A program made the position numbers and the translations under genes. From positions 5,552-69,551 of the forward strand of contig JBGSRU010000007.1 in the NCBI GenBank assembly GCA_041737385.1: DNA of 64,000 bases, read 5' to 3'. The notes below the pieces were generated by a model. It saw only the letters and a list, made by a program, of their open reading frames with translations, made no database searches and had not been told where the DNA came from. Positions 2,279-29,274 of this stretch are shown piece after piece. The DNA comes from Candidatus Saccharimonadales bacterium. GTDB taxonomy: Bacteria > Patescibacteriota > Saccharimonadia > Saccharimonadales > SZUA-47. The stretch's first letter is position 1; every line of letters begins with the position of its first letter.

Positions 2279-2371
2279 GGAGAGGTACCCAAGTGGCTGA
2301 AGGGGACGGTTTGCTAAATCGTTAGTGGGGCGAAAGTTCCAGCGAGGGTTCGAATCCCTCTCTCTCCGCCA
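2279..2371 (+). tRNA. tRNA-Ser (anticodon GCU), class II with long variable arm, CCA encoded
   Basis: Manual cloverleaf: GGAGAGG/TCTCTCC acceptor, anticodon stem ACGGT/ATCGT with loop TTGCTAA, 21-nt variable arm, T-arm GAGGG-TTCGAAT-CCCTC, then G-CCA. Confidence 0.9.
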
Positions 2372-2750
2372 GAGAGAGACGCTCTGCACCATAAGGTGCG
2401 GGGCGTTTTTCTTTGTCAAAGAAAAGGATTCGAACGCCAAGGGTTCGCTCATTAGTCCTATGCCCGAATTCTATTCGGCGCATAGATTAAGGAGGTAAAC
2501 CATCCCTCTCTCTCCGCCAAAAGAAAGAACAGCCCAAAGCGGCTGTTTTTTCTTTTGGTACGGGGAGTGAGAGATTCGAACCCGAGCGGTCCAGCTGTTC
2601 TCAGCTGGAGGAAGCGAGGAGGTTCGATGACAAGTCTGTTGCCCGAGCAAGCCTCGGCGCACAGATTTATCGTGTAGCATATATCCCTCTCTCTCCGCCG
2701 TCATACGGCAGACGGGCGGATTTCCCCCCTTCCCTCTCTCTCCCCGCCAA
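2372..2750 (+). repeat. Three stacked tRNA-Ser(GCU) 3'-end cassettes (terminator hairpin, inverted pseudo-3'-end, interrupted direct pseudo-3'-end)
   Basis: ATCCCTCTCTCTCCGCCA (2354-2371) recurs at 2502-2519 (18/18), 2683-2700 (17/18) and 2731-2749 (1-nt insertion). Inverted decayed copies lie at 2414-2435 and 2556-2589. Terminator hairpins lie at about 2379-2410 and 2529-2551. Confidence 0.85.
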
Positions 2751-2808
2751 AATCCCGCATACCTCATCTATTTTTAAGTTTAGCGCCAATATTGTCTTTT
2801 GATGTACA

Positions 2809-3327
2809 ATGATGCTTATGGATGAAGGTGATAACCAAGAAGAGAATCAAGGCCAAAGTCAAAACGAAATAGCTCCGGTTTCGTGGTCTGCCTCTGAGTA
2901 CATCAATCACGAGAAATCTTCGACTTGGCACGGCATCTTATTTGTCTCTGCCGGTGCTATAACGTTTATAGTGTTTTTAATATCACGTGACATACTTGCT
3001 TCGATAGTTATATTACTCTCAGCAACTGCTATGAGTGTCTATGCACGAAAGCAGCCACAAACAAAACTGTATTCATTAGATGATCAAGGTGTTTCTGTAG
3101 ATGGTAGGTCATATCCCTATTCAATGTTTAAGTCTTTTTCTGTAGTTGAGGAAGGTAGTATAAACAGTATTTGGTTAAAACCCATACAGCGATTATCGCC
3201 AACAACAGTAATCTACTTTCCACCTGATGAAGGCGATAATATAACCGAACTTTTATCGTACTTTCTACCATTCGAGGAAAAAGGACTTGATACGATAGAT
3301 AGGCTAACAAAGCGGATACGTTTTTAG
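2809..3327 (+). CDS. Hypothetical membrane protein (two TM helices, then a small soluble domain)
   Basis: ORF with hydrophobic segments ILFVSAGAITFIVFLI and ILASIVILLSATAMSVY. No motif recognised. Confidence 0.5.
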   Translation: MMLMDEGDNQEENQGQSQNEIAPVSWSASEYINHEKSSTWHGILFVSAGAITFIVFLISRDILASIVILLSATAMSVYARKQPQTKLYSLDDQGVSVDGRSYPYSMFKSFSVVEEGSINSIWLKPIQRLSPTTVIYFPPDEGDNITELLSYFLPFEEKGLDTIDRLTKRIRF

Positions 3328-3331
3328 AGCT

Positions 3332-4147
3332 GTGAAATCTCGTTTGCACCGTTTTTTGACCTGGATAACAGCATCTTATATTGGAAGCATGTTTGGCTTG
3401 ATGGTTGTCTCGGTATTTTTTTGGGTAACTTTTTCAACTTCAGGAACGATTAATACCGTCCTTCATACTGTAGAGTTCGACTCCGCGCTTCAGGCTTATA
3501 CTTCAGAACAAAGCGGCGTAGACGTATCAAAAAGCAGTGCTGAAAATGAGCAACAAAACTTCTCTGTAGTGGTACATCAATGGATTGAAGGCCCTATAGC
3601 AGAATTTCAATACGAATCAGACTTTTCAGAGCTTAAAAACACCGATCAGATAAGCTTGATTTATTCTCCAGAAGATTCATCAGTCAAAATTAAACCTCAG
3701 AGAATATATTTCTTCGCTAAACTGTACGCAATTATCTCCTTGCCTGTTCTTAGTTTGTGTATTTTGATCATGTATTTATTGCACCGCTCGAAGTTGTATA
3801 TTGTCTATCGTCTCGAGCGCATAGCACTCCTGAGTAGTATTTCGCTGCTAACATCTCTGCCCTTTTTATTCGTTTTCTGGAAATTTACAGCAGAAAGATT
3901 ATCGACATACCCACAAGCTCATCCGATTGCTATGAAGTTAGTTGTTCCACTTGCAAACGAGCTACTTCTCCGTTACGCAATCATTTCTCTTTCTTTTTTC
4001 GCTTTCTATTTCTTGCTCTATCAGATGCTAAAACGAGTATTACGTCACTATCACTACGAACCACCCCACCAGCACAAAAAGCGAAATGACCTACTGTGGT
4101 CCTCAACTAAGCTTGGCCGCATGTACATAAAAAAAGTCTTGAAATAG
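3332..4147 (+). CDS. Hypothetical polytopic membrane protein
   Basis: GTG-initiated ORF immediately after the previous gene. Several hydrophobic helices; no motif recognised. Confidence 0.5.
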   Translation: MKSRLHRFLTWITASYIGSMFGLMVVSVFFWVTFSTSGTINTVLHTVEFDSALQAYTSEQSGVDVSKSSAENEQQNFSVVVHQWIEGPIAEFQYESDFSELKNTDQISLIYSPEDSSVKIKPQRIYFFAKLYAIISLPVLSLCILIMYLLHRSKLYIVYRLERIALLSSISLLTSLPFLFVFWKFTAERLSTYPQAHPIAMKLVVPLANELLLRYAIISLSFFAFYFLLYQMLKRVLRHYHYEPPHQHKKRNDLLWSSTKLGRMYIKKVLK

Positions 4148-4179
4148 GAAGAGTCCATCTTTGCAGATGGACTCTTCCT
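4146..4179 (+). terminator. Perfect 15-bp hairpin after ORF 3332-4147
   Basis: AGGAAGAGTCCATCT-TTGC-AGATGGACTCTTCCT. No clear T-run follows, so it may be a bidirectional or structural terminator. Confidence 0.5.
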
Positions 4180-4180
4180 A

Positions 4181-4369
4181 TGGTGGACACGGCAGGATTT
4201 GCCCACCAATGGCGACCCCGGAAAAACTTCTTAGAAAATAAATTTTCAAGAGTTTGTTCCCTTGCGGACTGCACGAATGACAGCCCTCACTTCCGACCTC
4301 ATCGGTCGTAGATTCAAATCTTCCAAGTAAAGCCAATAAAAAAGCCGGTCAGATGACCGACACTTTTAT
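4181..4369 (-). repeat. tRNA-Arg 3'-end cassette (same architecture as the tRNA-Ser cassettes)
   Basis: 4181-4201 TGGTGGACACGGCAGGATTTG matches the tRNA 3' end TGGTGAACCCGGCAGGATTTG (4370-4390) at 19/21. An opposite-strand decayed copy of the T-arm/acceptor lies at 4303-4335 (21/32). A terminator hairpin lies at about 4341-4362. Confidence 0.8.
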
Positions 4370-4446
4370 TGGTGAACCCGGCAGGATTTGAACCTGCGAC
4401 CTCTTGTACCGCAAACAAACGCTCTATCCAGCTGAGCTACGGGTCC
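4370..4446 (-). tRNA. tRNA-Arg (anticodon GCG), CCA encoded
   Basis: Reverse complement folds as GGACCCG-TA-GCTC..GAGC-G-TTTGT-TTGCGGT-ACAAG-AGGTC-GCAGG-TTCAAAT-CCTGC-CGGGTTC-A-CCA. Confidence 0.85.
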
Positions 4447-4584
4447 TAAACTTTCTTATTACGCCGGTAAAGTGCAAAGAACAGGGGTAATAGTACCAGA
4501 AAACGAAGAAAATAGCTAGTTTAATGATTGCCTTATTCACAAGCTTTCGTCGTATACTGCATCTATAACTTAAAAGGAACCGTC

Positions 4585-4755
4585 ATGGGCAATGGGTTGA
4601 TAGCGTTTTTATTTGGTATTGGAGTCGCTAGCTGGGTCGCAAACAAGTTTTATAAGCGAACGGGTGGTAACACGCTAAAAAGTATTGGCGCTGGTGCTAT
4701 TACAGGCATTTTGGTCTTCTTTTTAATACTGTCTATCTTGTGGCAGATCCCCTAG
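4585..4755 (+). CDS. Small membrane protein (two TM helices)
   Basis: ATG at 4585 preceded by AAAGGA. MGNGLIAFLFGIGVASWV...GAGAITGILVFFLILSILW. The longer ORF from 4528 lacks an RBS. Confidence 0.5.
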   Translation: MGNGLIAFLFGIGVASWVANKFYKRTGGNTLKSIGAGAITGILVFFLILSILWQIP

Positions 4756-4827
4756 ATAGTTTCATCGACTAGCCGTTTCATACTATTTTCTTCTCTTTTT
4801 TCAATAAAAACTGGTATTATGTAGCTA

Positions 4828-5679
4828 ATGGATGAGGTGGGCCTTGGAAAGGCTTTACAACGGGCGAGGAAAACAGCCGGATTGACGCAGCAAGAGTTGT
4901 GTCAGCGTGCTGGTTTATCTTATTCAACATTAGCAAAAATCGAGCGAGGAGCGATCAAGACACCTTCGGTATTTACCGTTGCGCGTGTTGCATCGGTCTT
5001 GGGCACATCGCTTGATGCATTGCTAGGAACAGTAACAACAACTGATCATATGCAGGTAGCCTCGCGTAAAAGTACATCTGGTATTTCGTTCCTGTACGTC
5101 GATATTAATGGCTGTATGGTGCACTTTTTTCACGCTGCGTTTACTCGATTGGCTTACGAAACAGGCATCGCAGCAGATGGTATTGAATCAGCCTTCTGGC
5201 ACTATAATGATGCAGTCTGTCGCGGCGAGATGACGCTTGACGAATTCAACGATGTGCTCGCGAGTCGGCTCGGGCTGCCAGCCATAGCTTGGGCAGATTA
5301 TTATCTTGAAGCAATTGAGCCAATCACAGAAATGCACGAACTTCTCATATGGGCGGCTCAGAACTTTAAAGTTGGGCTATTATCAAATATCATGCCCGGG
5401 TTTATCGACGAAATGATCAAAAACGGTAGCTTGCCAGCTATACGCTATGACGCAATTATTGATTCTTCCGAAGTCGGTGCAATTAAGCCAGAGTTAGACA
5501 TATATAAGCGAGCACAGCTCAAAGCAGGTGTCCCAGCTGATGAAATCTTGTTTGTCGACGACAGCCGTACAAACCTGATGGCAGCTGAACGTCTCGGCTG
5601 GAAAGTACTTTGGTTCAACGACATGCAGCCAACAGAATCGGTTGCACGTATCAAATCATCTTTAGAATTAGCGCCTTAG
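4828..5679 (+). CDS. XRE-family HTH domain fused to a HAD-superfamily (subfamily IA-like) hydrolase domain
   Basis: N-terminus LGKALQRARKTAGLTQQELCQRAGLSYSTLAKIERG is a Cro/C1-type HTH. C-terminus carries the HAD motifs YVDINGCMV, LLSNIMPG, K-P and FVDDSRTNL. Confidence 0.7.
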   Translation: MDEVGLGKALQRARKTAGLTQQELCQRAGLSYSTLAKIERGAIKTPSVFTVARVASVLGTSLDALLGTVTTTDHMQVASRKSTSGISFLYVDINGCMVHFFHAAFTRLAYETGIAADGIESAFWHYNDAVCRGEMTLDEFNDVLASRLGLPAIAWADYYLEAIEPITEMHELLIWAAQNFKVGLLSNIMPGFIDEMIKNGSLPAIRYDAIIDSSEVGAIKPELDIYKRAQLKAGVPADEILFVDDSRTNLMAAERLGWKVLWFNDMQPTESVARIKSSLELAP

Positions 5680-8232
5680 CTAGTCGGGTTTACTGAATCT
5701 TGTAATCTCTGTTGTCATGTTTTCAATTTGGGTAGTAATCTCCGCAAGTTGCGCTTTCGTTTCGTCTATAAGTTTTTTAGGAGCTTTACTCGTGTAATTT
5801 TTGTTGCTCAGCCGTTTCTGAAGCCCCTCAGCACGTTTTACAACCTCATCACGACTCTTAGCTAGTTTCTGCGCATATCGCTCAGCACGTTCGCGGTCAA
5901 TGTCTAGCCAGCAACGATGCGAAGTGCTGACAAGGTGCAACCCCTTCCCGTCTTCAACTTGGTGAACGCCGTCTATCCGAGCAAGTTGTGAAATAAGCTT
6001 TGCGTGCTCTTGCAAGAACGTCACACCCTTATGGTAAAGGGACGTTTTGTCCAGCTGCATCGCTGAAACAATAGTTCTGGTTTCTACGACAATATTCTTG
6101 ATCTCTTCGAACTCAGTTGCTTTTTTGACGTCGTGCTTCATTATTGATGGCCACTTTTGGGATACCAATAGTGAATCGCCAGTTATGTCTAGTGTTTGCC
6201 AGATGGTTTCCGTCACGAATGGCGCAAACGGATGTGCGAGCTTCAGCACAGACTCTAGCGCATACAGGAGTAAATCGGGGTTAAGCTCTTGTTTGCTTGC
6301 TTCAATATACCAATCAGCAAAATCATCCCACACAAAGTGGTAGAGGGTTTCATACGCTTCACTCATCCGATATTCATCTAAGTGAGAGGAAATAACAGAT
6401 ATAGTATGTTGTAATTTATTCAACATCCAATGATCAGCAGGAGTGACAGGACTCGCCTTTGCTGAATCAGGGCTTTTCTCTTCGAGCATACCTTCAACAA
6501 ATCGTGCGATATTCCATATTTTGTTACAGAAATTTCGTGCAGCAAGTGATTTTGCTGGTGCATAAGCTGAGCTATCGCCCGCGCTTCTTCCAGAAATCAT
6601 CCCCATCCGTAGCGCATCAGATCCAAATTCTTCAATGACGGTGTGTGGGCTTATGACATTTCCTAGCGACTTGCTCATCTTTCGACCATCTTCTGAGCGG
6701 ACCATTCCATGCAAATATATATCCTTGAACGGCACATCACCGGTTATATACAACCCAAGACAAATCATACGCGCACCCCACTGGTAGAGGATGTCTGTGC
6801 CCATTTCCATAAGTGTATTAGGATAGAAATCTTTGAAGTCTTTTCCGTCAGGGAAATCTAGAGTTATAAATGGCCATTGACCACTTGAGAACCACGTATC
6901 AAAAACATCAGGATCTCTTCGGTAGTTTTTACCGTCACGCTCAATCACTTCTTCGGAAACCTGCTCATCAAATATCCAATCATCAGGATCATCGACATTT
7001 TGAAATGCTGGTATTGGGATTCCCCAAGCAATTTGTCTACTTATGTTCCAGTCACGAACGTTTTCAAGGTATGTGATCGTTTGTTCTTTTTTACTTGATG
7101 GATAAAAGGTGATTTTGTTGTCTTTTATGGCTTTTATTGCAGGGCCTGCCAGTTTCTTCATATCAACAAACCACTGTTCGAGAAGCATCGGCTCAATCAC
7201 AGTGCCACATTTGTAGCATGTCCCTACCCTGTTTTGATAGGTCTCGTCGACTTTTGTGAGTAGCCCCTTTTCTTTTAGTGCCGCTACCACTGCCGTGCGT
7301 GCCTCGAGCACAGTCATTCCTTCGAACTGACCGGCTCGGTGGTTCATCGTTCCATCATGGTTGATAACTCTTATTGCTTCGAGGTTATGTCGCTTAGCAA
7401 CTTCCCAGTCATTTTGGTCGTGGGCAGGTGTTATTTTAACGACACCAGTACCAAATGTTTTGTCTACCATGTCATCGGCCAGCACTCTGATCTCGAATGG
7501 TCCGTTTATACCTTCAACTTCTATCACCTTGCCGACGTATTCGCTATAACGCTCATCGTCAGGGTGTACTGCAATGGCCGTATCGCCGAACTTTGTTTCT
7601 GGGCGGGTTGTCGCAAGCTCAAATGGGCCATATTTGAGGTAATACAGCGGGGTGGTCCTGTCGACATGAGCGACTTCAATATCTGCGAATCCAGTTCGGT
7701 GTTCGGTGCAGTAGTTTACGAGTCTTTCACCTCTGTAAATAAGCCCATCGTCCCACATTTTTTTAAAAGTGTTGTAGGCGGTTTTGACGACTTTATCTTC
7801 GAGAGTAAACGTAAACCTACTCCAATCAACACTTGCGCCAAATGAGCGAAGCTGTGACTCAAATACTCCTCGATTATTTTCTACGAATTCCCAAATCTGT
7901 TCATATAACTCTTCTCTGCTGAAATCAAATCGACTTTTACCCTCTTTTGCTAGGTGTTTTTCGTAAACAACCTGTGTTTCGAAGCCTGCATGATCAGCAC
8001 CAGGCAGAAACAGTACATTCTTACCCACTGCCCTGTTATAACGAGCCAGAATATCCATTATTGAGTAGTTTAGCGAATGACCAATATGCAGTGGTGCATT
8101 TGCATTTGGCGGTGGCATTACCATGACAAATGGTACGCCCTTCCCTGTTGGCGCAAAGGCTTCGCTTTTCTCCCAAAGTGCGTAAATATCAGCTTCGTAA
8201 GCGTTTGGTTCGTAGTTTTTGGGTAATTTCAT
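5680..8232 (-). CDS. valS: Valine--tRNA ligase
   Basis: 850 aa. HIGH-type motif PLHIGH, KMSKS motif, editing-domain sequence, C-terminal coiled coil. Confidence 0.95.
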   Translation of the reverse strand: MKLPKNYEPNAYEADIYALWEKSEAFAPTGKGVPFVMVMPPPNANAPLHIGHSLNYSIMDILARYNRAVGKNVLFLPGADHAGFETQVVYEKHLAKEGKSRFDFSREELYEQIWEFVENNRGVFESQLRSFGASVDWSRFTFTLEDKVVKTAYNTFKKMWDDGLIYRGERLVNYCTEHRTGFADIEVAHVDRTTPLYYLKYGPFELATTRPETKFGDTAIAVHPDDERYSEYVGKVIEVEGINGPFEIRVLADDMVDKTFGTGVVKITPAHDQNDWEVAKRHNLEAIRVINHDGTMNHRAGQFEGMTVLEARTAVVAALKEKGLLTKVDETYQNRVGTCYKCGTVIEPMLLEQWFVDMKKLAGPAIKAIKDNKITFYPSSKKEQTITYLENVRDWNISRQIAWGIPIPAFQNVDDPDDWIFDEQVSEEVIERDGKNYRRDPDVFDTWFSSGQWPFITLDFPDGKDFKDFYPNTLMEMGTDILYQWGARMICLGLYITGDVPFKDIYLHGMVRSEDGRKMSKSLGNVISPHTVIEEFGSDALRMGMISGRSAGDSSAYAPAKSLAARNFCNKIWNIARFVEGMLEEKSPDSAKASPVTPADHWMLNKLQHTISVISSHLDEYRMSEAYETLYHFVWDDFADWYIEASKQELNPDLLLYALESVLKLAHPFAPFVTETIWQTLDITGDSLLVSQKWPSIMKHDVKKATEFEEIKNIVVETRTIVSAMQLDKTSLYHKGVTFLQEHAKLISQLARIDGVHQVEDGKGLHLVSTSHRCWLDIDRERAERYAQKLAKSRDEVVKRAEGLQKRLSNKNYTSKAPKKLIDETKAQLAEITTQIENMTTEITRFSKPD

Positions 8233-8538
8233 TCTTATCAGTTTACAGCATATCCCCTACCTCTTAACAGGGTTGAAGGTAAAAATGTTATTATAAGGGT
8301 TATGAGCACTCTTTCACGTGAAACAGACGCGCACTAAAAAGCAGGAAGATCCTACTATCCCCTCCACTGTTTAAAAGAAAGAATTTCACATGAAACCACG
8401 AAAATCCTTTGCTAGCACAATATTTACATAAAGTGTTCGCTTTTTGTTCGAAAGAGCTATCTGGTAGTTAATCAGATACTACTTAGCCACTATTTGTTTG
8501 TAAGTCCAGTATAACGGGGGTGTGCATCATAAGCAATA

Positions 8539-8567
8539 TTGACAAAACGAGTAAAATTTGCTATTAT
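8539..8567 (+). promoter_or_regulatory. Sigma-70-type promoter for ORF 8595
   Basis: TTGACA-17 nt-TATTAT. Confidence 0.6.
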
Positions 8568-8594
8568 ATAATTTATTAACTTATAAAACAAAAA

Positions 8595-9986
8595 ATGCCA
8601 GAAACAACATCATCAGAGCCACAGCAGTCCAGTCCTAGCATCATTGTTGATGGTTCCAATCAGGTGGAACAGTTATTATCAGATTACACTGGAGATCAAG
8701 TTGCAGTATTGCCGCAACCCTCTCAAGTGATCTTAAAAATTGAAGAATTAGCTGGATCCATTGACGAAGAAGGAAGAGAGTTGCCAGCGTTAACCAGCGA
8801 GTCTAAGCTTTCGGGAAGAACAACATCAAAAACCTATAAGAATGAAAGAAATGAATATGTTGGATTTTCGCATACCGTTTTTAATGAACATACTATGCAG
8901 GCATACTTTCAGGGCATCGAGCTATCTGCTGGAGAAGGCTATGGGAGATCAGCATATCTTGAAGCTATTAGATACTCTCTTCAAAAAGGATATGATTTTC
9001 GCTCAGATACAGGGACCACTTCAGCCGAAGCTGTAAAAATGTGGAAATGGCTAGAAGAGCAGGGGATCGCAGTGTCTGTAGATGAGTTTGAGCAGCAAAA
9101 AGACATGGCTGGTCAGGCGATGGAAGACACGTACGACGGATATTACGTCGTGAACGGCAACAATCAGCCAAAGATTGCTAAGCAAGGTGTTATACACACG
9201 TCTGATCAATCGGATAAGACGAACGATCAGTTTCCCGAAAAAAAATTCCAGGATGCGTATGAGAAGCAGCGAGGGCTACTAGAAGCACAGCGACAAAGAC
9301 AAAAACAAAGGGAAGCTGAACACATACAGAAATTACAAGATTTGCCTGTTGATGCCGCACCGCGTGTACGTGGAGTCTACGAAGGAAATTTAGCTATGGT
9401 GCGCAGGGGGATGAGGCTTACTGAAGGAGATCTGGAGTTTATGCGTCCTAGCTCAGCCGATGATGTCGCTTATCGTCTCAGGGTGTATGAAACGCTGCCA
9501 AAGGCTATCAGAGAAGCAGTCCCGAAGGGCACGCCGATTCGGTTTCACGGTAGTCCATTTCCTAGAGCTAGAGACATTATAAAAAGCGGTCAGATCTCTT
9601 CATCGGTAGACAGAGAAGGGATTGAGACCAGTTATGACGTTGGTGGTCAAATATCGGTGACAATGCCAGAAGATATCAGCACAACTGTTCATGATTTTAC
9701 CGGCATATTAGCAATGGAGTGCACGGTTCCGGCCGGATGCATTTTTGTGCTTTCTCCAGCGTCTGAAGCAGATGCTCAATCTGGAAGCAGTCAGTTGATG
9801 GGGAGCGTGTATTTTGATGAACAACCAGAACGGCTGTTGGGGATTATGACGTCACCTGAAAATATACCGACAGTACAGGAGTGGGCAGAAGGAGCTGGAA
9901 TAGACACTTCAAAGGTGCACGAATTTTTCGCCTATGCTGACACGTTACGTACCGTGTATCCTCCGGTTCCAGAAGCAATTACATAG
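8595..9986 (+). CDS. Orphan hypothetical protein (463 aa)
   Basis: Long ORF with coding-like composition. Disordered S/P/Q-rich N-terminus. A possible GNAT-like GEGYGRSAYLEAI segment is a weak call. The C-terminal domain is not recognised. Confidence 0.55.
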   Translation: MPETTSSEPQQSSPSIIVDGSNQVEQLLSDYTGDQVAVLPQPSQVILKIEELAGSIDEEGRELPALTSESKLSGRTTSKTYKNERNEYVGFSHTVFNEHTMQAYFQGIELSAGEGYGRSAYLEAIRYSLQKGYDFRSDTGTTSAEAVKMWKWLEEQGIAVSVDEFEQQKDMAGQAMEDTYDGYYVVNGNNQPKIAKQGVIHTSDQSDKTNDQFPEKKFQDAYEKQRGLLEAQRQRQKQREAEHIQKLQDLPVDAAPRVRGVYEGNLAMVRRGMRLTEGDLEFMRPSSADDVAYRLRVYETLPKAIREAVPKGTPIRFHGSPFPRARDIIKSGQISSSVDREGIETSYDVGGQISVTMPEDISTTVHDFTGILAMECTVPAGCIFVLSPASEADAQSGSSQLMGSVYFDEQPERLLGIMTSPENIPTVQEWAEGAGIDTSKVHEFFAYADTLRTVYPPVPEAIT

Positions 9987-11034
9987 ATAAATTAGGGGCG
10001 ATGTCGAGAGAGTAAGGGTCGGCGGTTGGCTGGTTGAGCATCGCTTTGTAGCAACCAAGTGTCGCAATCATTGCGCCGTTGTCGGTGCAAAGTTTCATGT
10101 CGGTGTATTCGATAGCGATAGGCAATCTGTCTGACAGTTGCCGTCTCAGTTCATGATTAGCGGCCACACCACCAGCAATCACGACTGATGCTGGAGCAAA
10201 CTCCTTGTAAGCTTCAATTGTCTTGTCAACAACTGTTTCTATGGCAATACGCTGGAAGCTTGCTGCGATATCACGCTTTTGGCGCTCTGAGAGCCTGCCA
10301 GGCACTTGATGTGAGGGATAGGTGAAATCTTCCCCAATTTCACGTTGCGCAAGCCGTAGAACGGCTGTTTTAAGGCCTGAGAAGCTAAATTCGTACTTGC
10401 CGTCTAGTTTAGCTTTCGGCAGTGTGTATTTATTGGCGTCACCATGAACGGCCGACTGAGCTACTGACGGCCCACCAGGGTAGGGGAGACCGATTATTTT
10501 AGCGACCTTATCAAACGCTTCACCAATCGCGTCATCACGTTTACGGCCCAATATTTCATAGGTGAAATGATCTGTGAACAAGACCAGCTGTGTGTGGCCG
10601 CCAGAGACAATTAACGCCAGTAGCGGGAATTCAGGTTGCTTAGCGGGAAGGGAATAACCGGCCAGATTGGTTGTCGTCAAAAAGTTAGCGTAGACATGGG
10701 CTTCAACATGATTAATCCCGTAAAGTGGCTTTTGTTTCGTGATTGCAAGCGTTCGTGCGCTCATGACACCGACGAGTAGACTGCCACCCAGTCCAGCGCC
10801 GTACGTCACCGCAATAGCATCAATAGTGTCCCATCCAACAGGGTTAACAGCCGCCTCGATAACCGGTATGATGCTTTCGATATGACTACGTGCAGCTATT
10901 TCAGGCACAACACCACCGTAAACCTTATGTAGATCCATGCTTGAGTACACCGCGTTCGATAACAGTTCATTGCCATCTTTTACGACTGCAGCTGCTGTCT
11001 CGTCACAACTAGTTTCAATACCAAGTACTATCAT
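9979..11034 (-). CDS. tsaD: tRNA N6-adenosine threonylcarbamoyltransferase (Kae1/TsaD family)
   Basis: N-terminus VLGIETSCDETAAAVV, HxxxH metal site (INHVEAHV), ASKHA fold length. Confidence 0.92.
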   Translation of the reverse strand: MIVLGIETSCDETAAAVVKDGNELLSNAVYSSMDLHKVYGGVVPEIAARSHIESIIPVIEAAVNPVGWDTIDAIAVTYGAGLGGSLLVGVMSARTLAITKQKPLYGINHVEAHVYANFLTTTNLAGYSLPAKQPEFPLLALIVSGGHTQLVLFTDHFTYEILGRKRDDAIGEAFDKVAKIIGLPYPGGPSVAQSAVHGDANKYTLPKAKLDGKYEFSFSGLKTAVLRLAQREIGEDFTYPSHQVPGRLSERQKRDIAASFQRIAIETVVDKTIEAYKEFAPASVVIAGGVAANHELRRQLSDRLPIAIEYTDMKLCTDNGAMIATLGCYKAMLNQPTADPYSLDIAPNLSM

Positions 11035-27585: not shown

Positions 27586-27675
27586 GGAGAGGTGTCCGAG
27601 TGGCTTAAGGAGCACGCTTGGAAAGCGTGTAGGTCAGCAATGGTCTCGCAGGTTCGAATCCTGTTCTCTCCGCCA
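27586..27675 (+). tRNA. tRNA-Ser (anticodon GGA), CCA encoded
   Basis: GGAGAGG acceptor, anticodon stem CACGC/GCGTG with loop TTGGAAA, long variable arm, T-arm GCAGG-TTCGAAT-CCTGT. Confidence 0.9.
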
Positions 27676-27814
27676 GGAGAAGAACGGCCAGCATAAGCTG
27701 GTCTTTTTCTTTTAAGAAACAAAGGATTCGATCCGAAAAGGTTCGCTAAATAGTCTTATCACCCTGAAAGGGCTGATAGATTATTTAGGTCTCCTCATCC
27801 TGTTCTCTCCGCCA
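27676..27814 (+). repeat. tRNA-Ser(GGA) 3'-end cassette
   Basis: ATCCTGTTCTCTCCGCCA (27658-27675) repeats perfectly at 27797-27814. Terminator GGCCAGC-ATAA-GCTGGTC plus T-run. Inverted decayed copy at 27714-27734. Direct GGTTCG at 27740-27745 followed by a hairpin insert at 27752-27783. Confidence 0.85.
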
Positions 27815-27818
27815 AGTA

Positions 27819-27847
27819 TTGACTTTTATAATCATAAGTAGTATAAT
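27819..27847 (+). promoter_or_regulatory. Sigma-70 promoter giving a leaderless or near-leaderless mRNA for ORF 27857
   Basis: TTGACT-17 nt-TATAAT. The ATG lies 9 nt after the -10 element. Confidence 0.6.
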
Positions 27848-27856
27848 ATATTAATT

Positions 27857-28423
27857 ATGCTCAAATACACTCTACCGGATGTGCATATAGCGCAATCTTA
27901 TGATGAAATGATAGCTTTTAATGGTATTTCAACTTTTACAAGCCCCGAAATCGCAGAAGAGTTAATCGCTCAAGGTGATGGTCGTTACGACAGAGTAAAC
28001 TACGTTCTGCAAAATAGAGGTAGGTTCTTTACTGGTTTACCGGGTAAGAACGCTCGTACATTTGGGACAAGAGATATCGGCTTAAGTGAAGCTTCTCAAC
28101 TACATATCGATCCTGAGGGTAGAGGAGTAGCTCTTTGTGCAATGGGTGAGATGGCCGCAAAGCTTACTCAGCTTGATCTATCAGATGAACCGATAGAGCA
28201 TATTCCTTTTGATATTATGAATATCAACCAAGTTAGGTACGTACAATTAAAAGCAAGAATTGTTGATAATCCACCTTCTGACAGTGATGTATTATCTTTA
28301 ACCGCTCCAGTCGGAACATATATTGCGTTCAACGGTGGTCTTAAATGTGATCCAGCAAAGTTGAACCCTCATGGATTTTCAAGTTCAATATCTCCTAGAG
28401 CTAGTGTTTCTAGCTATCTTTAA
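27857..28423 (+). CDS. Orphan hypothetical protein (188 aa)
   Basis: ORF only. Lies between two tRNA-Ser genes. Confidence 0.45.
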   Translation: MLKYTLPDVHIAQSYDEMIAFNGISTFTSPEIAEELIAQGDGRYDRVNYVLQNRGRFFTGLPGKNARTFGTRDIGLSEASQLHIDPEGRGVALCAMGEMAAKLTQLDLSDEPIEHIPFDIMNINQVRYVQLKARIVDNPPSDSDVLSLTAPVGTYIAFNGGLKCDPAKLNPHGFSSSISPRASVSSYL

Positions 28424-28854
28424 TTTGTGGAGTTTAACAACAGTTTAATTTTATGTTCTTCTTTCGGGGTTACTGATCTACGACCGTCAAAACATTTCAT
28501 AAAAAGATATTCATCACCTTTATCATTTAGCGTATATAGCCAATCATATGCATACTTTTTCGTTTTTTTAATAACATATCCTTGAGAATTAGAATGAATT
28601 CTTCTAAGTTCAACTAACTTGCCTGAAAAGAATCTCACTTGAACTTTTTTTAATTTTCCTTCGTAATCAACCACAATATCGTAGGCTGCTGATTCTGTTA
28701 TTGGTAAAGAAACATCATACCCAGCTTTAGTAAAAGTGGCTATTGCTTGTGTGACTGCATAATCACCTTTGTGCTGAGTAGTTCTCATACACTCATAGTA
28801 CGGTATAGCATACCGTTCTTGCAAATATAATCTGTTATTGTTATAATTTGGCAA
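28420..28854 (-). CDS. PD-(D/E)xK-type nuclease-like protein (start possibly at 28788)
   Basis: GDYAVTQAIATFTKAGYDVSLPITESAAYDIVVDYEGKLKKVQVR fits the E...D...(E/Q)xK pattern of small stand-alone or intron-associated PD-(D/E)xK endonucleases. Confidence 0.5.
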   Translation of the reverse strand: MPNYNNNRLYLQERYAIPYYECMRTTQHKGDYAVTQAIATFTKAGYDVSLPITESAAYDIVVDYEGKLKKVQVRFFSGKLVELRRIHSNSQGYVIKKTKKYAYDWLYTLNDKGDEYLFMKCFDGRRSVTPKEEHKIKLLLNSTN

Positions 28855-28859
28855 GTTCT

Positions 28860-28949
28860 GGAGAGGTGTCCGAGTGGTTTAAGGAAATAGTCTTGAAAAC
28901 TATCGAGCCCGCAAGGGTTCCGAGGGTTCGAATCCCTCCCTCTCCGCCA
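28860..28949 (+). tRNA. tRNA-Ser (anticodon UGA), CCA encoded
   Basis: GGAGAGG acceptor, anticodon stem ATAGT/ACTAT with loop CTTGAAA, long variable arm, T-arm GAGGG-TTCGAAT-CCCTC. Confidence 0.9.
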
Positions 28950-29240
28950 ATAAAATAACCCCCACATGCAAAACATGTGAGGGTTTATTTTTTGGGAGAG
29001 CACAGAGACAACTTCTTGTCTCTGTGGGGATTCGAACAGCTTAAGCCTTGTTCCGCCCAATGTGCGGAACGGCGCGCCGAGCTCACGAGCATATTGCAGA
29101 GCAATATGACTTGGGAGGTGGAAATCCCTCCCTCTCTGCCAGAGAGAATCGCCTGGGTCTTTTTACGCAGGCGTTTTTCTTTTGCTAAAGAAAAAGGATT
29201 CGAATCACAGGTTCATGAGGTAAAGCATCCCTCCCTCTCC
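28950..29240 (+). repeat. Two stacked tRNA-Ser(UGA) 3'-end cassettes
   Basis: AATCCCTCCCTCTCCGCCA (28931-28949) recurs at 29123-29141 (18/19), and as ATCCCTCCCTCTCC at 29227-29240. Inverted decayed copies at 28993-29036 and 29183-29206. Terminator hairpins after each CCA. Confidence 0.8.
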
Positions 29241-29274
29241 TTGAATATAAAATAACTACTGTACAATAGCGTTT

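Follow-up and report, generated by a model that had tools for sequence, protein, structure and literature searches.

Integrons accumulate units beside a fixed anchor, and their attC sites are imperfect palindromes of ~60-150 nt that conserve their structure better than their sequence and fold in a strand-specific manner. Repetitive extragenic palindromic (REP) sequences, bacterial interspersed mosaic elements (BIMEs) and repeats of the miniature inverted-repeat transposable element (MITE) type constitute families of small, non-coding, non-autonomous hairpins that are found at gene 3' ends near terminators. Plant mitochondrial t-elements, mascRNA and viral tRNA-like structures exemplify tRNA-like RNAs that are involved in processing or act as decoys. 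Each of these systems bears a partial likeness to the subject of this study, the short foldback cassettes that stand behind tRNA genes in a 64-kb stretch of chromosome (hereafter the window) from Candidatus Saccharibacteria (TM7), whose protein relatives carry that name and in which type IV secretion system (T4SS) pilin genes are present. Two further processes are relevant to their origin: tRNA gene fragments arise commonly in prokaryotes via the integration of mobile elements (PMC9897764), and inverted triplication via template switching at short inverted repeats, termed origin-dependent inverted-repeat amplification (ODIRA), has been documented in yeast (PMC10766183).

The cassettes typically combine a terminator, an inverted copy of the end of the adjacent tRNA, a structured core and a direct copy of the same tRNA end. 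We tentatively favor, with a probability of about 40%, the explanation that they are small, non-autonomous insertion cassettes without an open reading frame (ORF), which are gained beside a tRNA gene via the shared tRNA end. This layout is frequent in Candidatus Saccharibacteria and is by no means confined to the window. In kind, the cassettes appear to belong with tRNA-end duplications at insertion sites and with palindromic intergenic repeats, in a layout that is undescribed, and there is a realistic chance that they are more distinct than either. They represent neither an assembly artefact nor a known RNA family nor an ordinary prophage scar. The original prediction, made from the sequence of the window, knew of no described element with this layout, and this statement stands, as literature searches for such tRNA-flanking cassettes and searches of Rfam turned up none.

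The comparison with known systems shows features in common and clear differences in every case. As in the attachment (att) repeats and tandem accretions of mobile elements, a direct repeat of the tRNA 3' end bounds the insert, the functional tRNA stays intact, older copies lie farther out, and a terminator is supplied beside the tRNA. Unlike such repeats, the cassettes (75-195 bp) carry neither recombinase nor cargo and have no parent element that could be found; they hold an inverted copy of the same tRNA segment as well as a structured core, and a 5' mirror form exists. With integron attC cassettes they share the arrays at an anchor, the terminal imperfect palindrome, strand-specific folding and the occurrence of empty cassettes; new units would likewise be added next to the anchor, and one unit (L127) possibly carries a gene. 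However, no integron integrase or attI was seen at the four arrays of the window, the arms copy the neighboring tRNA end instead of R'/R'' sites, and nearly all units are ORF-less. Similar to REP, BIME and MITE-type repeats, the cassettes are small, non-coding, hairpin-forming and non-autonomous, occur in families and lie near terminators, but they occur exclusively next to tRNA genes, have arms that follow the adjacent tRNA and not a family consensus, and are flanked by an 18-19-nt direct repeat; moreover, no REP-associated tyrosine transposase (RAYT) or other transposase was identified in the 64 kb. The direct-inverted-direct order with both junctions on hairpin-forming sequence is that of ODIRA-type inverted triplications (PMC10766183), which span kilobases, whereas the cassettes span tens of nucleotides, possess conserved cores and in one case a non-local terminator. 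Finally, the cassettes resemble tRNA-like RNAs in forming a partial acceptor and T-arm mimic beside the gene, with a 3' end identical to that of the tRNA. They differ in that CCA is also paired with the 5' arm, that the outer arm undergoes decay and that a terminator usually precedes the cassette.

Layout of the cassettes

The window contains four tRNA genes, coding for tRNA-Ser(GCU), tRNA-Arg(GCG), tRNA-Ser(GGA) and tRNA-Ser(UGA) (ARAGORN and Rfam), and all four loci were found to share the predicted architecture. It is most extended behind tRNA-Ser(GCU), whose last 18 nt, ATCCCTCTCTCTCCGCCA (2354-2371; tRNA positions 59-76, from the T-loop to CCA), represent the repeated "tail." The parts of this locus are:

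2279-2371, plus strand: tRNA-Ser(GCU) (ARAGORN; Rfam RF00005, 52.8 bits)
2372-2415, plus strand: cassette 1, part A, with purine run (2372-2379), GC hairpin (2380-2405) and T-run (2406-2415) (sequence; fold)
2414-2435, plus strand: cassette 1, part B, decayed inverted copy of the tRNA T-loop and acceptor 3' strand, TGTCAAAGAAAAGGATTCGAAC (repeat search)
2441-2501, plus strand: cassette 1, direct pseudo T-stem 5' half GGGTTCG (2441-2447), then an H-type core (fold; H-family alignment)
2502-2519, plus strand: cassette 1, direct tail copy, 18/18 (repeat search)
2520-2555, plus strand: cassette 2, part A, terminator-type hairpin with A-run and T-run (repeat search; terminator scan)
2556-2589, plus strand: cassette 2, part B, inverted copy of the T-arm and acceptor 3' strand, beginning with TGG (repeat search)
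2590-2682, plus strand: cassette 2, interior with apical hairpin (2590-2609), direct GGTTCGA (2621-2627) and H-type core (hairpin 2633-2669)
2683-2700, plus strand: cassette 2, direct tail copy, 17/18 (repeat search)
2701-2749, plus strand: oldest remnant, TCATACGGCA and further sequence, then a decayed tail copy (2730-2749) with a 1-nt insertion

The three same-orientation copies of the tail that had been predicted were recovered by the repeat search, the third of them with one extra C. Allowing up to three mismatches, the tail has seven matches in the 64-kb window, as compared with 0.03 expected by chance; the additional matches are the tails and tail copies at the other two tRNA-Ser loci. 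The inverted copies, terminator hairpins, direct GGTTCG motifs and homologous inserts likewise lie at the positions first assigned to them. Part A of cassette 1 is an intrinsic terminator, the stem of which continues outward as a palindrome in the fold, and a terminator scan placed hairpin and T-run terminators at ~2380-2415 and ~2530-2555; the arms of the latter, CCAAAAGAAAGAACAGCC and GGCTGTTTTTTCTTTTGG, are 94% complementary. The inverted copies pair with the tRNA over 16 nt in cassette 1 (2348-2363 with 2420-2435, 88% complementary) and over 23 nt in cassette 2 (2346-2368 with 2561-2583, 87%). They had been described as decayed by transitions, which holds for most of the changes but not for all of them.

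The GGTTCG motif is present in both cassettes (2442-2447 and 2621-2626), and the two inserts are homologous (73% identical without gaps between 2442-2467 and 2621-2646). Cassette 1, whose hairpin AGTC..GATT occupies 2454-2489, is ~81% identical to the cassette behind the tRNA-Ser(GCU) of L003. The hairpin stems of cassette 2 are identical to those of a tRNA-Met cassette in L186, and a weak match to the E-type model R1 extends over 2556-2700. The folds of the cassettes are more stable than those of shuffled sequences (z -2.6 to -5.1), with z = -4.8 for the interior of cassette 2.

In general, a tRNA ending in CCA is followed by a terminator (A-run, GC hairpin, T-run), an inverted copy starting with TGG, a turn or small hairpin, the direct 5' half of the T-stem, the structured core and the direct copy of positions 59-76, after which a further terminator is often found. 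The inverted copies, which comprise the T-arm and the acceptor 3' strand, begin exactly at TGG next to the terminator and form, together with the tRNA end, a palindrome centered on this terminator. The cassettes measure 49-195 bp and contain no ORF. Minimal units of 75-84 nt (L021, L022, L043, L082) consist only of the hairpin of inverted and direct tail copies. L082 and L043 exhibit no terminator between tRNA and cassette, and in L082 it is located after the cassette instead.

The distribution of the layout was assessed with a 24-nt tRNA-Ser(GCU) anchor, which yielded 120 loci from GTDB representative genomes, nearly all of them Saccharibacteria. Including a few loci reached via proteins, the census set comprised ~130 loci with 267 tRNAs, and copies of the last 16 nt with at most two errors were counted if they were located within 600 nt and not inside another tRNA. 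Such copies, whose presence in related genomes was one proposed check of the original prediction, were found downstream of 38 of the 267 tRNAs and, in the upstream control, at two of 267. They are spread over the genes for tRNA-Ser(GCU) (18/112), tRNA-Arg(GCG) (7/49), tRNA-Ser(UGA) (6/58), tRNA-Ser(CGA) (3/33), tRNA-Ser(GGA) (2/5), tRNA-Met (1/4) and tRNA-Gly (1/1), with none at those for tRNA-Asp, tRNA-His and tRNA-Pro (0/5). Metagenome contigs contributed further examples at tRNA-Met and tRNA-Trp genes. The spacings of the tail copies cluster at 60-85, 100-125 and 140-195 nt, and the presence of cassettes is patchy (~10-25% of loci).

A mirror form exists on the 5' side, where eight of 258 tRNAs are preceded, at a distance of 69-159 nt, by a copy of their first 18 nt, with no such copy downstream of any. 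These cassettes consist of the head copy, small hairpins, an inverted piece of the adjacent D-arm or anticodon stem and a promoter-like sequence, which lies between the inverted copy and the tRNA. As read from the sequence, a putative promoter thus takes the place that the terminator holds in the 3' form.

Gain, loss and shared cores

Whole cassettes, delimited by the 18-19-nt tail repeat, are the units of gain or loss. The presence or absence of a single cassette, another proposed check, was observed between L124 and L127, as L124 corresponds to L127 plus a 125-nt unit that stands directly behind the tRNA between such repeats. The older cassette is homologous in both loci and its terminator is ~90% identical. 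Both terminator and core of the new unit are unrelated to this local older cassette, and the terminator instead resembles those of tRNA-Ser cassettes of other species. In L127, two copies of an E-core 3' end plus tRNA-Ser tail enclose a prepilin-like gene (178 aa) that has a promoter and a terminator of its own; this arrangement (L127:520-1545) may represent a gene-carrying cassette.

Core families are shared by different tRNAs while the flanks remain tRNA-specific, even within one genome. In L133, an 87-nt core is 99% identical between the tRNA-Ser(GCU) and tRNA-Ser(UGA) cassettes of the same genome; the identity runs from GGTTCG to just short of the tail, and the inverted copies and tails are specific for the respective tRNA. 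In L109, terminator plus inverted part occur in two copies of 100% identity, and a second tRNA has a copy that is nearly identical. Where a second terminator is present, it often duplicates the first in direct orientation (L109, L133, L095). The arrays show an age gradient, as tails closer to the tRNA are better preserved (18/18, 17/18, then decayed in the window). The outermost tails in the window and in L109 have the same flank, TCATACGGCA, behind them, which is common to the oldest remnant of the window and the orthologous locus in L109.

The nearest relatives either lack cassettes or have the tRNA inverted: where the nearest relatives of the downstream gene are found, tRNA-Ser(GCU) is in the opposite orientation or another tRNA-Ser is located there. 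In L189, L190 and L192, tRNA-Ser(GCU) lies on the strand opposite to that of the window. L009 and L010/L011 share an identical neighboring protein, and their tRNA-Arg/tRNA-Ser pair is inverted, with and without cassettes. Judged from such arrangements, tRNA genes look like rearrangement breakpoints in this group. Indels in L027/L052/L071/L084 and in L054/L100 proved to be coding repeats or a gene insertion and revealed no cassette differences. A search of genome contigs with the ComF-like neighbor protein found no relatives.

The cassette interiors fall into several families. The H family is defined by the hairpin AGTC...GATT and includes cassettes 1 and 2 of the window, the tRNA-Ser(GGA) cassette and the cassette of L003; the G family includes the tRNA-Arg cassette of the window, L045, L095, L191 and a 5' cassette in L009; the E family is the most numerous; and the P family has hairpins with a GCC-WGT-GGC apex. 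In a BLAST search of the cores against 1.04 Mb of loci, every match was positioned behind a tRNA, at a distance of 39-274 nt and on its strand, with the 5' cassette of L009 as the sole exception. This cassette (L009:7811-7990) lies at tRNA-Ser(CGA) and contains a G-type core like that of the 3' cassette at the tRNA-Arg of the window; a single core family is thus able to occupy the 5' as well as the 3' side of a tRNA. A metagenome scan with the H pattern identified three more H cassettes, two at tRNA-Met and one at tRNA-Trp, whose stems are identical or nearly identical to those of cassette 2 of the window and whose flanks are tRNA-specific. In total, the H core is found at tRNA-Ser(GCU), tRNA-Ser(GGA), tRNA-Met and tRNA-Trp, and the G core at tRNA-Arg and tRNA-Ser as well as in the 5' cassette. 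L186 carries an H cassette followed by an E cassette. Rfam searches of the cassettes of the window, L003, L009 and L103, at gathering and at permissive thresholds, returned only noise-level matches beyond the true tRNAs.

Structure was examined in the E family, for which a covariance model collected 18 cassettes from 14 species at E < 1e-4. In this alignment, which is fitted to its model, 89.5% of the cells form a standard pair, as compared with 73.8% after shuffling. The covariation score of 0.42, to which different tRNAs copied into both arms contribute in helix 1, exceeds that of shuffled alignments (0.16; none of 500 as high) and of slid registers (at most 0.124). Double changes occur in six of six pairs of the apical hairpin and in seven of nine pairs of the central AT-rich hairpin. 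Helices 1-3 contain 30 G·U and four A·C mismatches, and a model-free census of cassette bodies without the terminator, which treats both mismatch types (G·T and A·C) alike, counted 22 G·U and six A·C (p = 0.004). In addition, the H alignment displays an invariant G·T at the foot of the hairpin. By minimum free energy, the sense strand folds better if the terminator is included (p = 7e-7), but not significantly so without it (p = 0.12); the strand argument therefore rests on the mismatch census, which was used instead of the energy test. Imperfect palindromes with covarying structure and a strand-specific bias in folding, as in attC sites, are thus present, and the hairpins appear to be adapted for folding of the tRNA-sense strand, whether this is RNA or single-stranded DNA. 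The outer inverted arm is poorly kept, and its helix with the tail (helix 4) is 79% paired with 14 A·C and nine G·U; the tail copies are kept far better.

The motif GCGAAGC occurs in 6.7 kb of cassettes ten times in tRNA-sense and once in antisense orientation, which is ~16-fold over background. It is present, for example, in cassettes of L035, L103, L109, L129 and L133, and the apex loops of the E family are mostly CTTG or TTTA. All three are classical compact DNA mini-hairpin loops, and their presence hints at a role as single-stranded DNA.

Other tRNA loci and setting of the window

The remaining three tRNA loci of the window are organized as follows:

4370-4446, minus strand: tRNA-Arg(GCG) (ARAGORN, Rfam)
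4181-4369, minus strand: tRNA-Arg(GCG) cassette with terminator, inverted copy, G-type core (~4201-4307) and tail copy (4181-4198, 16/18)
27586-27675, plus strand: tRNA-Ser(GGA) (ARAGORN, Rfam)
27676-27814, plus strand: tRNA-Ser(GGA) cassette with terminator, inverted T-loop copy (27723-27734), GGTTCG, H-type hairpin (27752-27783) and tail copy (27797-27814, 18/18)
28860-28949, plus strand: tRNA-Ser(UGA) (ARAGORN, Rfam)
28950-29244, plus strand: two tRNA-Ser(UGA) cassettes with tail copies 29124-29141 (17/18) and 29227-29244 (15/18, truncated)

At tRNA-Arg(GCG), the tail copy is located 174 nt downstream of the tRNA, and the core is homologous to those in L009 and L045. The T-arm and tail of this tRNA and the inverted copy form a 48-nt palindrome (71% complementary), the arms of which are 2 nt apart and centered on the terminator loop. 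The cassettes of tRNA-Ser(UGA) fold with z = -5.1.

Pfam scans of the 61 ORFs of the window revealed a housekeeping region (ValRS, TsaD, Mur ligase, ArgRS, DnaG, sigma-70, PolA) with a GC content of 38-47% in 2-kb windows. In agreement with the original prediction, no integrase, transposase or HUH nuclease was found among these ORFs, nor was a reverse transcriptase, and the surroundings of all four arrays are free of tyrosine recombinases. The only nuclease-like ORF codes for a PD-(D/E)XK protein (PF11645; 28420-28854). It belongs to the segment 27857-28854 between the tRNA-Ser(GGA) cassette and tRNA-Ser(UGA), which contains this endonuclease gene and a 188-aa ORF without Pfam match and could be a small island or a nuclease tied to the tRNA loci. 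The GC skew stays at or below zero over the first ~8 kb and is positive throughout the rest of the 64 kb; the minimum of the cumulative skew at ~6-8 kb may mark a replication origin or a strand-switch point near the tRNA-Ser(GCU) and tRNA-Arg loci. The sequence in front of tRNA-Ser(GCU) contains a palindrome, CAAATTCGAGA...TCTCGAATTTG (~2160-2187), as well as an inverted repeat of 15 nt (2204-2218 with 2248-2262). A motif similar to this palindrome, CAAATTC...GAATTTG, adjoins the tRNA 5' end in L190 and L192.

Competing explanations and their implications

The explanation as ORF-less insertion cassettes that use the shared tRNA end fits the data best and accounts for the mirrored arrangement of 5' and 3' cassettes, the age gradient, the foreign terminator of L124 and the cores shared across tRNAs. 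In this model, each new cassette would be inserted between the tRNA and the older cassettes, which would thereby be displaced outward. Entry would proceed by recombination in trans at the duplicated tRNA end, with the conserved tRNA body and the tail (or head) copy as recombination arms, and might be mediated by host homologous recombination after DNA uptake, by ectopic conversion between tRNA loci or by an unlinked site-specific recombinase. The insertion would be tolerated because the terminator carried by the 3' form, or the promoter carried by the 5' form, keeps the tRNA expressible. The inverted copy is probably a relic of founding units created by template switching at the terminator and T-arm palindromes; direct-inverted-direct triplication is likely the origin of these founding units but not of every copy. 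Selection on the cores would favor folding of the tRNA-sense strand, be it read-through RNA or single-stranded DNA. Preservation of the tail might reflect either its former role as the functional tRNA end until the last insertion or the homology that a unit needs in order to move. Among the readings offered in the original prediction, a non-autonomous foldback element that copies its target comes closest, with the target either copied at insertion or carried by the element.

Several observations weigh against this explanation. No recombinase, excised form or donor molecule was seen, and the core patterns have no genuine match in viral contigs, where the H pattern gave none and the E and G patterns only chance matches in GC-rich coding DNA. 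A homology of 18-19 nt is short for RecA. L124 and L127 are the sole clean pair of filled and empty sites and could equally have arisen through an exact deletion in L127. The model accounts neither for the conservation of the cores and their sense-strand structure nor for the retention of the inverted copy in nearly every cassette. In addition, the H cassettes behind tRNA-Ser(GCU) in the window and L003 are ~81% identical, as compared with only 72% for the neighboring proteins, and this is as compatible with purifying selection on a host function as with repeated invasion.

A bolder proposal, which we consider unlikely, is that Saccharibacteria possess a tRNA-anchored, integron-like system of foldback cassettes or else a new class of small RNAs scaffolded on tRNA ends. 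In the integron-like version, each cassette would fold on one strand, as single-stranded DNA or RNA, with the tRNA end as anchor site; cassettes would stack beside the tRNA, occasionally carry a gene as in L127, and depend on a putative enzyme acting in trans.

According to the strongest alternative, which nevertheless appears doubtful, the cassettes code for small structured RNAs that are transcribed together with the tRNA, or act as signals for the processing of such RNAs, and the DNA dynamics are secondary. The product would be a minihelix-like or tRNA-scaffolded molecule that ends in the 3' 18 nt of the tRNA and serves as decoy, processing signal or stabilizer. The constant orientation of the 3' cassettes with the tRNA and within ~40-270 nt of it agrees with this proposal, as do the covarying and stable hairpins, the G·U preference on the sense strand with the invariant G·T of the H hairpin, the near identity of H cores in tRNA-Met, tRNA-Trp and tRNA-Ser cassettes of different samples and the far better preservation of tail copies than of inverted copies. 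L082 and L043, which lack a preceding terminator, and the terminator behind the L082 cassette point in the same direction. Transcription of most cassettes, however, would have to pass a strong preceding terminator, and scans for terminators and promoters detected no promoter-like site inside them. An acceptor-like stem with a single-stranded NCCA is not formed, since the arm starting with TGG pairs with CCA and the outer inverted arm is often too decayed, with A·C mismatches on the sense strand. Outer cassettes of an array decay, 5' mirror cassettes cannot end in CCA, presence is patchy with relatives that lack cassettes, no Rfam family matches, and the energy bias between the strands disappears once the terminator is removed. 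The earlier suggestion of tRNA-like or decoy RNAs is thus supported by the bias of the hairpins toward sense-strand folding, whereas the anatomy of the ends speaks against it.

It is improbable that the cassettes are merely a mutational by-product, in which template switching at the terminator hairpin and the T-arm generates a direct-inverted-direct triplication devoid of mobility or function, followed by unequal crossing-over and decay. The resemblance to tandem inversion duplications and to the ODIRA-type triplications of yeast (PMC10766183), a documented analogous mechanism, lies in the order of the copies and in junctions at pre-existing palindromes, one of them centered on the terminator and the second at the T-arm or a hairpin, as in the closely spaced arms at tRNA-Arg(GCG). 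The exact start of the inverted copies at TGG beside the terminator, the constant specificity of inverted copy and tail for the local tRNA, the duplication of terminators (L109, L133, L095) and the 5' version, which pivots on the D-arm, are also in line with such events. A triplication draws all of its material from the local flank, though, whereas the terminator and core of the new L124 cassette are non-local and core families are conserved across tRNAs, loci and species. The inverted copies have deteriorated much more than the tail copies, although both should be equally old; the cassettes also show covariation as well as a preference for G·U on the sense strand, and very compact genomes have retained them.

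Ordinary attL/attR scars, left after internal deletion of large integrative elements such as prophages with tyrosine or serine recombinases, are a very improbable source. Fragments of tRNA genes do arise commonly in this manner (PMC9897764), tRNA-segment repeats of 18-19 nt do bound the inserts, and the pilin-like gene of L127 lies between two copies of a core end and tail. A genuine integrative element was also found: a 5-kb insertion with a large serine recombinase (Resolvase, Recombinase, Zn_ribbon_recom) is located at the 3' end of tRNA-Arg(GCG) in L010 (L010:3054-8058), flanked by GGGTGTACCA, and is absent from the otherwise near-identical L011. Yet this element has a 10-nt repeat only, with neither foldback nor core, and scans of viral contigs with three core patterns revealed no full-length element with the same attP. 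No remnant of a recombinase or cargo was detected in ~60 cassettes examined, and Pfam revealed no recombinase in the 64 kb. The uniform, compact layout with conserved families would not result from independent deletions. The idea of stacked att scars therefore holds insofar as tail-bounded blocks are gained or lost and nearer copies are better preserved, but not as scars of large elements, since the units are small, belong to conserved families and are devoid of recombinase and cargo.

An assembly artefact through collapsed or duplicated reads, conceivable with short repeats and with short-read contigs that break at the tRNA T-arm, is practically eliminated because independent Logan contigs from SRR28170464 are 100% identical to window positions 2343-10078 and 27646-28949, including all three cassettes behind tRNA-Ser(GCU), and because the same architecture recurs in dozens of unrelated NCBI, JGI and ENA assemblies.

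Some further candidates were rejected. A group I or archaeal-type tRNA intron in the T-loop would require a ribozyme core, which is missing, and tRNA introns of Patescibacteria are reported at position 35/36. An origin by reverse transcription, suggested by the 18 nt that equal the length of a retroviral primer-binding site, disagrees with the lack of a reverse transcriptase among the ORFs scanned and with inverted copies that extend past position 58. T-box-like sensing and homing of CRISPR-associated transposons lack their required components, and the substitutions are not adenine-specific as in mutagenesis by diversity-generating retroelements.

Software for tRNA annotation or for the detection of islands can be misled by the tail copies and pseudo T-arms, which also break short-read assemblies at tRNA genes. 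The genomes of Saccharibacteria are tiny and tightly packed, so that recurrent non-coding arrays of 150-470 bp beside tRNAs call for an explanation. If the cassettes are mobile, they would represent a minimal form of DNA spread, in which a universally conserved gene end provides a portable homology or attachment site and a terminator or promoter keeps the host gene working. Cassette loci appear to be hot spots of rearrangement, as is visible from the flips in tRNA orientation between close relatives, and may help to explain the genome plasticity of these episymbionts. If the cores are functional RNAs, they would constitute several new RNA families that are missing from Rfam. An integron-like system or a new class of small RNAs, if true, would add a new system to a phylum whose mobile-element biology has been little characterized.

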